Shown here piece after piece: positions 6,001 through 9,000 of a stretch of 18,229 nucleotides of DNA. Positions within the stretch are counted from its first letter, which is position 1; each line of letters begins with the position of its first letter. Made by a program: the position numbers. The stretch is from positions 1-18,229 of IMG/VR virus record IMGVR_UViG_2778261567_000023. The stretch is one strand, 5' to 3'. The DNA comes from a virus. Lineage: Duplodnaviria > Heunggongvirae > Uroviricota > Caudoviricetes.

Positions 6001-9000
6001 TCGTTGCCGCTGCATTTATTCCCGGATCTGCCCCTGAAGTTGACCACATTAACGGTCGTCGAGATGACAACCGGGCGGTAAATCTTCGCTGGGCCTCTCT
6101 TTCACAAAACAGGGCTAACTCTCACACCAGAAAAAATAAATCTGGAGTGGTTGGCGTTCGGTTCAGCGAAGGTAAGAAAAACCCGTGGCAGGCCTACGGA
6201 CGATTAAACGGCAAATTCAAATCTCTCGGTCATTTCCCCACCAAACAACTCGCAGCGGCTGCGCGGCGAAAACACATTCAGGAGGTCATGAATGCCTGAT
6301 GTTCATGCACGATTATCACCATCATCTGCACATCGTTGGCTAAGGTGTGCGGGTAGTCTGGCGCTGGAGGCCACACAACCGGATAAAGAAACAACTTTTG
6401 CAATCGAGGGCACTGCAGCGCACGCGCTTGCTGAAAAAGTTCTACGAAACAGGCAAAGCCACCCGGAACACTACGCCGGATGCAATGTTTCTATGTTTCT
6501 CGGCTCATACCCCCTTCGCGAAAATCCTGATGATACATCTGGCCCACAGGTGGATGATGAAATGGTCGAAGCCGTTGGCCGGTATGTTGATACGGTCTGG
6601 ACTCTTGCACAGAATAATGAACTATTGGTTGAACAACGTGTTGATTTCTCACATATAACGGGTGTGGAAGAATCTTTCGGAACTGCCGACGGCATAATCA
6701 TCGCTGGTAACGAATTACAAATCCACGACCTGAAATATGGCAAAGGCGTCCGCATTGATGCAGAACAAAATGAGCAACTACAACTGTATGCTCTGGGTGC
6801 TCTCGAACAATTCAGCATGCTGTATGACTTTGAGACTGTAAGATTATTTATTCACCAGCCAAGGCTCAACCACGTTTCAGAATGGTCTTTAACCGTACAG
6901 GAGCTTCAGTCTTTCGGTGAACGGGCACTGGAGGCCGCAACCAGTGCGATCCTTGTTCTCAATATTGCTGAATGCGAAGGCATTGAGACACTACCGCTGG
7001 AAAACTTCATACCTGGAGAAAAACAGTGCCGCTTCTGTAAAGCAAAAGCTATTTGCACTGCCCAGAAAATGCAGCATTTACAAACAGCGGCCAGCGATTT
7101 TGAAGATCTGACAAAGCCTGTCAGCGAAATCATCACCAATGCCAGCGCACGTGTACCTCTGTTAACCATTGAGCAGCTTGCGGAGATCTATAGTCAGGCC
7201 GACTTTATTGAATCCTGGCTAAAGGCAGTACGGGACCGGGTTCACAATGAACTCAATGCCGGACATCCGGTACCGGGGTTTAAACTGGTAACAGGAAAAC
7301 AAGGTAACCGGGCCTGGAGTGATGAAGAAGCCGCCCGCGCGCTGCTGAAAGACCAGTTCCGTTATAAAACCGAGGAGGTTTTCGATCTTAAGCTGATTAG
7401 CCCAACCAAAGCCGAAAAACTTATCAAAAAGGCCAGTCCGCGCCGTTGGTCAAAAGTCGAGGCACTGATAACACGAGCTGATGGTAAACCAACCGTCGTT
7501 CCCGAGTCGGACCCACGCCCCGCACTCAATATCAACCCTGTAAATGATTTCGACGACGTATCCGACGATACGCTCGCCGCAGACCTCATCTGATTAAAGG
7601 AGACTTTCATGAAGATTAAATTAAATAACGTGAGATTAGCTTTTCCTGCTCTGTTTGAAGCTAAAACTGTAAACGGCGAAGGCGATCCGCGTTTCTCCGC
7701 AGTATTTTTAATGTCTCCCAAACACCCACAACTGGAAGAAATCCGTAAAGCTATGAAGCAGGTAGCGAAGGAAAAATGGGGGGAGAAGTGGGAGTCCATT
7801 TATAACCAGCTGGAGAAAAAACTCAATCTGTGCCTGCATGATGGTGATGAAAAAGCAGAGTATGAAGGCTTTCCCGGCAATTTCTTCCTGAATGCTGCTA
7901 ACAAAGCGCGCCCGGCCGTTCTTGATCGCGATCGTTCGCCACTGATTCAGGCTGATGGACGTCCCTATGCAGGGTGCTATGTAAACGCCGTTATCGATAT
8001 CTGGGCACAGGACAATAATTTCGGTAAACGCATTAATGCCTCACTCGGCGGAGTCCAGTTCCTGCGAGACGGCGATGCATTTGCTGGCGGCGGAGTGGCA
8101 AGCGCTGACGATTTCGACGATATCAGCGAAGGTACTGATGCTGAAGCACTGATTTAATCCTGCTTCACAGACGCCCGGTTAAACGCCGGGTGTCTTTGCA
8201 AAGGGGAATATGCCCGGAGCTACCTGTATTGTTCTGGTTAGCACCCAGTCGCCCTGCTACCCCGATATTGACTCATCGCCCCCTTCCGGTTTATGCTCAC
8301 CGAATCTCCCAAATGGAGATCGGGATTAGCACCCCGGAAGTTTAAGAGGCGACACCAGACGCGCCAGCGTCTTTTTATTGTCGCAAGCTTTGCCACGTTC
8401 GCATTATGGCGGGCTGTGTGGGGGCGGAGAAATCCGCGCCGGTTCCTCTTAACCCGGTAGTGCTAACCCCGCACAGTTCGCCACCACGATGATTAGCACC
8501 TGATGGTGGCGATTAACTCAGTTAAGAGGAAAATCGTCATGAGTACCCAAATCGTATTCAAATCCCACGTTCTCGAAACGATCGAACATAACGGCAAAAC
8601 TTGGTTTACTGCGGCTACCCTAGCTACCGCGCTGGAATATTCGGATGCTCGCAGCGTAACTAACATTTACACCCGCAACACGGATGAGTTCACTCTCGGC
8701 ATGTCCGAGGTAATCAAAATGGTTACCTCGGGGAATTTACAGGCCTCGCGCCGCATTTTCTCCCTCCGCGGTGCCCACCTGGTAGCTATGTTCGCAACAA
8801 CTCCGGTAGCAAAAGAATTCCGCCGTTGGGTGCTTGACCTTATCGAGAAAGAAACCGCTGTTCCGCAATCCTCCACGATACTGGCGCCGCACAGGGAGTG
8901 TCTGCCGAAGATGGTTTACCACCACAGTAGCAAATACAACCCGTACAGGGCTTATGCATGGGACGGAGAGAAAAGCGTTTACGTCGGGTGCTATCCAACC

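Follow-up and report, generated by a model that had tools for sequence, protein, structure and literature searches.

The gap upstream of an antirepressor-like BRO-N gene in the window (the whole stretch of 18,229 nt of phage DNA that was analysed) is very probably a self-contained RNA immunity cassette of the P1 immI type which, with an IsrK-like leader, controls this gene. The cassette is a new copy of an already known RNA switch and is located among the replication genes of an integrated lambdoid-like Stx2b prophage. The odd-looking repeat pattern of the gap can be explained by a standard RNA immunity cassette of the P1/Gifsy-1 type, and two previously unannotated RNA genes have now been annotated in this Stx2b-converting prophage (Table 1).

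Table 1. Positions of the cassette elements and neighbouring features within the window.
Feature	Position	Strand	Basis or remark
Extra copy a0, GGTTAGCAC	8236..8244	+	upstream of promoter; 9-nt complement to C4 8460-8468
Sigma-70-type promoter, TTGACT-18-TATGCT	8268..8297	+	promoter scan; predicted start ~8304
IsrK-like leader / short RNA	8304..8377	+	hairpin 1 8304-8320, a1 hairpin 8321-8336, b1, intrinsic terminator
a1 target, TTAGCAC	8326..8332	+	CGGG/CCCG loop; complement of C4 a'
b1 target, TTAAGAGG	8342..8349	+	8-nt complement of C4 b' loop
Intrinsic terminator, AGACGC-GCCA-GCGTCT and T run	8357..8379	+	terminator scan; terminator helix of the isrK model
C4 antisense RNA	8402..8488	+	Rfam RF01695, full-length model; contains the inverted heptamer
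b' recognition loop, UUCCUCUUAAC	8443..8453	+	11-nt loop of C4 hairpin 2 in minimum-free-energy and consensus structures
a' recognition element, GUGCUAA	8460..8466	+	single-stranded C4 segment; equals the inverted heptamer
a2 target, TTAGCAC	8493..8499	+	hairpin loop; exact complement of a'
b2 target, GTTAAGAGGAA	8521..8531	+	perfect 11-nt complement of b' loop; over the BRO-N gene Shine-Dalgarno
BRO-N domain protein gene, antirepressor-like	8539..9303	+	Pfam Bro-N 2.9e-10; RefSeq annotation
Terminator-like hairpin and T run closing the cassette	9315..9334	+	terminator scan
CI-type repressor gene of the prophage	3390-4082		

The gap extends over 381 bp, from the stop codon of the DUF2815/Enc34 ssDNA-binding gene at 8157 to the ATG of the BRO-N gene at 8539 (RefSeq start); the first-pass annotation had put it at about 340 bp. 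RefSeq annotates no genes within the gap. Its earlier description as non-coding agrees with this, with the lack of family matches and with the RNA-type variation seen across loci. Four ORFs in the gap (8190-8345, 8293-8460 and 8406-8492 on the plus strand, 8238-8396 on the minus strand) were rejected as coding: none is found in RefSeq, none has a family match, and the region changes across loci by paired RNA-type substitutions and indels. We regard an rteR match (8143-8197; 17 bits, E 5.7) as noise.

The heptamer TTAGCAC occurs three times on the plus strand, at 8238-8244, 8326-8332 and 8493-8499, and its reverse complement GTGCTAA is present in the gap as a single inverted copy at 8460-8466. 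The four copies reported earlier are thus correct in number but not in orientation, being three direct and one inverted. It is this inverted copy that is the key to the region. Over the full window, 5 heptamer matches were observed versus 2.26 expected, with four of the five packed inside 270 nt, and not one of 400 first-order Markov simulations of the window reached at least three heptamers per 270-nt span. TTAGCAC is the "a" specificity of the present cassette, and other cassettes have different heptamers.

The inverted heptamer is contained in a C4 antisense RNA, which matches the Rfam C4 model from position 1 to 87 with 76.1 bits (gathering score 45, E 1.2e-13). The minimum-free-energy fold (-47.5 kcal/mol, z -4.6) is the consensus fold, with a long closing stem and two hairpins. 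Among 25 sequences, compensatory changes on both sides were found for 14 of the 27 C4 pairs. Alignment with the ends of the P1 C4 RNA places the predicted mature C4 at 8408-8485. GCCACCA at the 3' end is similar to the acceptor end of a tRNA, with GGCG...CGCC-A-CCA visible; despite this resemblance, a tRNA/tmRNA scan gave no match.

Upstream of C4, the promoter TTGACT...TATGCT proposed in the first-pass annotation at 8268-8297 was recovered by the promoter scan. A comparable promoter (at least 8 of 12 matches) is found in all 24 C4 loci, with 28-32 nt between the end of its -10 hexamer and a1. The leader that follows is matched by Rfam isrK (RF01394) at 8304-8377 over the full length of the model (positions 1-77, E 9.8e-10) with 49.6 bits, which is 0.4 bits under the gathering score of 50. 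The near-identical leaders of the close relatives L122 and L123 score 50.9, and isrK is above threshold directly upstream of C4 in 15 of 15 other loci scanned. The c4-a1b1 model (RF03163) aligns with both helices at 8291-8340 (30.6 bits, E 7e-6); its gathering score of 46.7 is not reached by the leader of the window. Gifsy-1 itself was not among the matches when the phage collection was searched by BLAST with the consensus of isrK.

The leader folds with -22 kcal/mol (z -2.2). Hairpin 1 covaries across loci, while the a1 hairpin and the terminator are conserved, the latter in 24 of 24 loci and, in the window, nested inside an outer stem (GCGACA 8349-8354 with TGTCGC 8379-8384). The strong hairpin expected after the promoter is present, with bounds 8304-8320 in place of 8300-8323, and an intrinsic terminator was also found, slightly 3' of the 8347-8369 given before, with a stem at 8357-8372 and a T run to about 8379. 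The minimum-free-energy fold of 8304-8378 contains the CGGG-AUUAGCAC-CCCG hairpin (8321-8336). The unit of promoter, hairpin and terminator, postulated to give a short transcript, is a probable homologue of a real short RNA, IsrK, but the main regulator C4 had been missed. Judged from their sequences, the C4 loci show IsrK-family leaders and C4 RNAs as two halves of one cassette.

The targets of C4 are arranged on both of its sides. The octamer TTAAGAGG occurs three times in the whole window, all copies being inside the cassette. The second a target lies in the loop of the UCGCCACCA/UGGUGGCGA stem, noticed before, in which 8478-8486 pairs with 8504-8512; the 5' arm of this hairpin also serves the closing stem of C4 as its 3' strand. 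When stems were searched in each sequence separately, an equivalent a2 hairpin was present in 23 of 24 loci, and its stem has at least 8 sequence variants. Column-wise pair counting on the locus alignment proved unusable because lineages differ in their pairing register (59.6% paired, and 80.6% after a shift of the partner by -3). The duplex of b' with b2 has -14.0 kcal/mol, and b2 covers the Shine-Dalgarno sequence AAGAGG, 8 nt before the ATG at 8539. RNAcofold of C4 with its targets gave no net pairing gain; loop-loop contacts are outside its model, and the result says little either way.

Each of the 24 C4 loci carries the complement of its own a' at both canonical positions, compared to none of 480 foreign pairings. 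Their a segments are of 9 kinds and their b loops of 22; a 6-mer complement of the own b' is found upstream in 21 and downstream in all 24. One further pattern match, L029, was dropped as a chance match lacking complementary sites. In L122 and L123 there has been a natural swap: a', a1 and a2 have changed together (TTTGCAA), and b', b1 and b2 have also changed together. In the relative L124, a was kept and b changed. The correspondence between heptamer and a' is seen with any kind of downstream protein, be it Icd-like, Rha, Ant, AntA/AntB or BRO-N. The earlier interpretation is thereby supported in part: the region acts at the RNA level and the heptamers are recognition sequences shown on stems, but they are very probably docking sites read through base pairing with C4.

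The loci also permit a separate observation, namely a reassortment of the "a" and "b" specificities between prophages of enterobacteria. Such reassortment and the joint occurrence of IsrK-family leaders and C4 in one cassette are of use for annotation and follow from known biology.

Residues 2-112 of the BRO-N protein match the PHROG "anti-repressor Ant" (7e-32), and relatives have Ant or AntA/AntB genes at this position. The protein is accordingly described as antirepressor-like on the basis of its sequence. Some other loci carry Icd-like genes (NF033153); the window has none, and no ORF lies there between C4 and the BRO-N gene. The ORF overlapping C4 (8406-8492) has 28 codons, ends 47 nt before the ATG at 8539 and has no family match.

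Sequence and comparison show a constitutive-looking sigma-70 promoter, with a predicted start of the leader at about 8304, and a leader that presents, in this order, hairpin 1, a1 in the CGGG/CCCG loop, b1 and the intrinsic terminator. They also show that C4 exposes b' in a hairpin loop and a' in a single strand, the two being exactly complementary to b2 and a2, and that b2 lies over the Shine-Dalgarno of the BRO-N/Ant-like gene. Transcripts, processing sites and repression at this locus we infer as follows. By analogy to P1/P7, read-through transcripts may be processed to a C4 of about 78 nt, with an RNase P cut at the 5' end and a 3' end resembling a tRNA acceptor; binding of C4 to a2 and b2 would then block ribosome binding and keep the antirepressor off in the lysogen. 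As the window lacks an icd or orf45 leader ORF, C4 would act here directly on the ant Shine-Dalgarno. By analogy to IsrK of Gifsy-1, transcripts stopped at the leader terminator would yield an IsrK-like RNA with a length of about 74 nt; through its a1 and b1, this RNA could pair with a' and b' and compete with a2 and b2. The balance of termination and read-through would decide whether the antirepressor is made and, again by analogy, whether the CI-type repressor is inactivated. The part of the Gifsy-1 mechanism that depends on orf45 translation and its coupling to anrP cannot apply, because the corresponding ORF at 8406-8492 ends too early, 47 nt before the ant ATG. By inference, the cassette is a plausible SOS-independent control point of Stx2b phage induction, because antirepressors can trigger prophage induction.

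The upstream targets could have another role: a1 and b1 could serve autoregulation of termination as in P4, instead of acting as a decoy. In this alternative, C4 binds a1/b1 of the nascent leader, and also a2/b2, and makes transcription stop early, either at the leader terminator or at one further downstream; the operon is autoregulated and the short terminated RNA is a by-product with no decoy function. We consider this possible but rather unlikely. It would fit the position of the intrinsic terminator, directly next to b1 on the 3' side; each of the 24 loci has this terminator, and P1 has a similar one. In the IsrK study, IsrK is described as structurally homologous to P4 seqA, and the authors propose that STnc1160 could modulate termination as CI does (PMC4825925). 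Both C4 and P4 CI are processed hairpin RNAs cut by RNase P (PMC5499578). However, b2 is exactly on the Shine-Dalgarno of the next gene, here and in other loci, which points to translational occlusion. Furthermore, constitutive STnc1160 of Gifsy-1 did not relieve the IsrK effect in the way the termination model predicted (PMC4825925), and the fold analysis of the locus did not find an alternative antiterminator structure. Termination of the P4 type and translational occlusion do not exclude each other.

Two further explanations, both raised in the first-pass annotation, invoke proteins. That an RNA-binding protein or an antitermination factor reads the heptamer loops, with the promoter-to-terminator transcript as the only small RNA, is highly improbable. 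The heptamers do occupy hairpin loops and homology bears out the short transcript unit, but the same gap contains their perfect complement within a high-scoring C4 RNA, and the heptamer varies by locus while always fitting its own C4 (24 of 24, foreign 0 of 480). This disfavours reading by a protein, whose site should remain the same as long as the protein does and should not track a neighbouring RNA. There is hardly any likelihood left for the heptamers being DNA sites of the downstream BRO-N (AP2-like) protein. Its residues 124-165 appear AP2-like by eye and weakly match an HNH endonuclease PHROG (E 7e-5), yet a Pfam AP2 match is absent even at E up to 10. TTAGCAC also occurs in cassettes with other proteins, with Ant in L124 and with an unrelated 78-aa protein and a 329-aa protein in L106, and relatives with the same upstream flank and another antirepressor have changed the heptamer together with C4. 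The heptamers are unlikely to be DNA sites of the downstream protein because a and a' track each other whichever protein is encoded.

It is uncertain if the extra heptamer copy a0 is part of the C4 system. The hairpin CUGG-UUAGCAC-CCAG described for it (8234-8248) can be formed but is weak (-3.6 kcal/mol, z -0.65). No counterpart of a0 was found in the other C4 loci; homology with L123 starts only at about 8249, and a0 is unchanged in L122 although the C4 of L122 has a different a'. It is improbable that a0 is a functional third docking site which titrates C4 and couples early transcription to antirepressor release. The copy lies in the transcript of the DUF2800-DUF2815 replication genes, within its 3' untranslated tail, and as such a site it could titrate C4 when the early/replication operon is read through its weak terminator. 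If true, a0 would represent a feed-forward commitment step undescribed for P1, P4 and Gifsy-1.

The immI region of P1/P7 (c4 - icd - ant1/ant2), for which the P1 facts were taken from the GenBank annotation and secondary citations, shares with the window the order promoter, a1, b1, T-run hairpin, C4, a2, and b2 on the Shine-Dalgarno of the first gene. In the P1 annotation, promoters P1c4/P51b are the positional equivalents of the 8268-8297 promoter and a1 is at the equivalent place; the role of a1/b1 is termed "putative". The a1-b1 and a2-b2 spacings are 7 and 22 nt in P1, and 9 and 21 nt in the window. The C4 fold is common to both, hairpin 2 carrying b' in its loop and a 3' single-stranded segment carrying a', and so are the 3' end resembling a tRNA acceptor, GCCACC(A), and the antirepressor-type gene downstream. 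According to PMC8546580, Ant synthesis of P1 is repressed by C4 RNA. The recognition sequences differ, with a being TTGACAG and b GTTAGTG(A/C) in P1, but TTAGCAC and (G)TTAAGAGG(AA) in the window. P1 has an Icd-like leader gene and encodes Ant1/Ant2, whereas b2 of the window is on the Shine-Dalgarno of the Ant-like gene itself, which codes for a BRO-N protein. Unlike in P1, no C1 operator was identified in the window, there is the extra a0 copy, and isrK fits the leader with a better score than c4-a1b1 does. P1 is a plasmid prophage, while the cassette of the window resides in an integrated one.

The isrK - orf45 (STnc1160) - anrP locus of Gifsy-1 (Hershko-Shalev et al. 2016, PMC4825925) has in common with what is predicted for the window a short RNA that is ended by an intrinsic terminator and has a three-hairpin layout, with a middle hairpin complementary to the downstream RNA, and read-through into a structured RNA followed by an antirepressor-like gene. 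IsrK was detected as a terminated sRNA in Salmonella, a processed RNA, STnc1160, is found downstream of it, and IsrK supplied in trans raised anrP translation 139-fold; the compensatory mutations G28A/C162U and G31A/C159U establish a link between the region of the a1 hairpin and the RNA downstream (PMC4825925). The published mechanism needs orf45 translation and anrP coupling, whereas the ORF of the window has only 28 codons and ends 47 nt before the ATG. The immunity system of satellite phage P4 (CI RNA, seqA, seqC), which was compared by description, has a processed hairpin RNA, as we predict for the window, in the leader of the operon it controls, with complementary targets both upstream and downstream of the RNA as summarized in PMC4825925. 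In PMC5499578, P4 CI is listed among RNase P substrates, as is C4. The output differs: in P4 it is premature termination of replication-gene transcription, while for the window we propose occlusion of the antirepressor Shine-Dalgarno.

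The heptamer pattern upstream of the BRO-N gene is best explained by an RNA switch of a known kind. Four copies of TTAGCAC had been reported in the first-pass annotation, and this number is correct: four copies lie within 270 nt, and three or more were reached in none of 400 Markov simulations. However, only three are direct copies on the plus strand (8238, 8326 and 8493), while the fourth is inverted and lies inside a C4 antisense RNA (Rfam RF01695), where it provides the GUGCUAA that is complementary to all three direct copies. C4 is matched over its full length (8402-8488) with 76.1 bits against a gathering score of 45 and adopts the family fold (-47.5 kcal/mol, z -4.6), with compensatory changes in 14 pairs of this fold in an alignment across loci. 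The b' loop of C4 is perfectly complementary to GTTAAGAGGAA (b2, 8521-8531), which includes the Shine-Dalgarno sequence of the BRO-N gene, and is complementary over 8 nt to TTAAGAGG (b1, 8342-8349). The earlier interpretation as an RNA-level regulator with a short transcript unit stands, the latter by homology, but the antisense RNA which reads the heptamers had been missed.

Features of the C4 cassette and its surroundings in the window
Feature	Position	Remark
CI-like repressor gene (HTH and S24 peptidase)	3390-4082	further upstream of cassette
DUF2815/Enc34-type ssDNA-binding gene	7609-8157	left neighbour of cassette
Cassette promoter	8268-8297	promoter scan
Terminator-like hairpin and T run	8357-8372	scan
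b', 11-nt hairpin loop UUCCUCUUAAC	8443-8453	in C4
a', single-stranded GUGCUAA	8460-8466	in C4
BRO-N domain gene	ATG 8539, end 9303	right neighbour of cassette

An IMG/VR pattern scan for the conserved C4 skeleton gave 119 loci with 27 distinct a'/b' combinations, 24 of which are real and have sufficient flanking DNA and were kept for the co-variation test. The complement of the locus's own a' occurs at fixed positions upstream and downstream of C4 in all 24 cases, compared to none of 480 foreign pairings, and that of its own b' upstream in 21 and downstream in all 24. There are also natural swaps between close relatives. L122 and L123 have a = TTTGCAA and b = (C)GTTAGAGG, each at all three places, and L124 retains TTAGCAC with a different b. 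As heptamers match their own C4 and are swapped together with it, sequence comparison shows them to be antisense target sites, TTAGCAC being only one among many specificities. DNA sites for an AP2 domain in the downstream protein had been considered as an alternative, but no Pfam AP2 domain was detected in this protein. Its N-terminal part matches a PHROG antirepressor (7e-32) and Pfam Bro-N, and in relatives this position is taken by Ant or AntA/AntB genes.

At relaxed thresholds, the segment 8304-8377 gives a full-length match to the Rfam isrK model (49.6 bits, threshold 50, E 1e-9) and a weaker one to the c4-a1b1 motif (30.6 bits), so that the small transcript proposed here appears real by homology to the IsrK sRNA. 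In all 15 other loci scanned, isrK is found above threshold immediately upstream of C4, and IsrK-type leaders and C4 RNAs therefore form one cassette. The proposed promoter and terminator were both recovered, the latter as a terminator-like hairpin with a T run. A sigma-70-type promoter lies at a constant distance from a1 in 24 of 24 loci; leader hairpin 1 covaries across loci, and the CGGG/CCCG hairpin presenting a1 is conserved, as is the terminator.

The hairpins described as presenting heptamers are present in the sequence, the first (8234-8248) being thermodynamically weak. The third, with a2 in its loop (8478-8512), is conserved and covaries: 23 of the 24 loci have an equivalent, with at least 8 different stem sequences. 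The 3' strand of the C4 closing stem serves as its 5' arm and pairs with a downstream complement. Because the two stems compete, the a2 hairpin and the mature C4 fold exclude each other, and the hairpin could form only if the unprocessed transcript folds differently. It may represent a precursor conformer with an influence on processing or target access. The first hairpin holds a0 (GGTTAGCAC, 8236-8244), upstream of the cassette promoter, a 9-nt complement to C4 that is unlikely to have arisen by chance. It falls outside the block conserved with L123, has no counterpart in the 23 other loci compared, and is identical (still TTAGCAC) in L122, the C4 of which carries a different specificity. Judged from these comparisons, a0 is most likely a passenger or relic; a functional role is less likely.

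A prophage found in E. coli STEC1590 and in two other STEC genomes matches the window with 100% identity; RefSeq annotates it as Stx2b-converting, with an integration site adjoining yfhL. The label "SSB-like" for the left neighbour is fair, given its DUF2815/Enc34-type match. Directly 3' of its stop codon (8171-8197), a hairpin, GACGCCCGG-TTAAACG-CCGGGTGTC, is followed by TTTGC and looks like a weak terminator, with read-through into a0 and the cassette possible. Between the ant and DNA polymerase genes lies a 208-aa ORF (9418-10044, minus strand; hypothetical protein in RefSeq) without a match in Pfam and PHROG searches.

Promoter, IsrK-like RNA, C4, ant and a terminator (9315-9334) make up a cassette (8249-9340) which looks like an autonomous, mobile module. 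It is located after DUF2815 (window, L122), after a DNA polymerase gene (L123) or in a lambdoid nin region (L124), and the antirepressor gene differs at each site. The a and b elements reassort independently in IMG/VR loci L003-L121 (9 a segments, 22 b loops, 24 combinations); a = TTGGCGT occurs with 4 different b loops and b loop TTTCTTCGTTTA with 3 different a segments. L123 (E. coli O121, NZ_CP119441) has an Rfam sRNA-Xcc1 match (RF02221, 72.8 bits, 1421-1509) about 45 nt upstream of its cassette; the window has none. A 45-aa RefSeq "hypothetical protein" (WP_001300362.1, L123 1564-1701) spans the terminator of IsrK and half of C4 (the 5' half); probably it is either an ORF miscalled on the RNA genes or a counterpart of Gifsy-1 "orf45". 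The nearest phage-database match to the IsrK-C4 segment (81.7%) is in PP818812.1, a phage whose label gives Actinobacillus pleuropneumoniae as the host, which is surprising for a cassette of E. coli type.

This analysis shows directly which elements are present, that they are complementary and that they co-vary; the mechanism we propose draws on related systems. C4 of P1/P7 is described in PMC5499578 as a substrate of RNase P, which makes its 5' end, and in PMC8546580 as repressing Ant synthesis in P1; its pairing with a2/b2 is from the P1 annotation. By analogy, C4 would be excised from a read-through transcript by a process in which RNase P cuts the 5' end, and would repress Ant synthesis by pairing with a2/b2. 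In Gifsy-1, some transcripts stop at the leader terminator and yield a short RNA, which in trans raises translation of the antirepressor gene 139-fold; its pairing with downstream RNA was shown by compensatory mutants, and a processed RNA, STnc1160, arises downstream (PMC4825925). Likewise, a fraction of transcripts in the window would end at the leader terminator, and this short RNA would activate antirepressor translation by pairing with downstream RNA. Read by hand, the leader (8321-8349) could form about 23 bp with C4 (8445-8471), versus 18 for the mRNA sites, which fits a leader acting as decoy. A P4-like role in termination may also exist, but is less likely.

The order of elements is that annotated for P1 immI: promoters P51a/P51b, a1, b1, c4, a2, b2, then icd and ant. 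The recognition sequences in P1 are a = TTGACAG and b = GTTAGTG(A/C), with b' in the loop of hairpin 2 of C4 and a' 3' of it. Spacing is similar (a1-b1: 7 nt in P1, 9 nt in the window; a2-b2: 22 and 21 nt), and P1 also has a hairpin and T run between b1 and c4. However, the P1-type Icd-like gene, common at other loci, is absent from the window, as is the orf45-type coupling of Gifsy-1, the ORF overlapping C4 stopping 47 nt short of the ant ATG. The predicted target of occlusion by C4 is therefore the Shine-Dalgarno sequence belonging to the antirepressor gene itself. The cassette is of the known C4/IsrK kind, shared with P1 immI, Gifsy-1 and P4-like elements, in a variant without a leader ORF.
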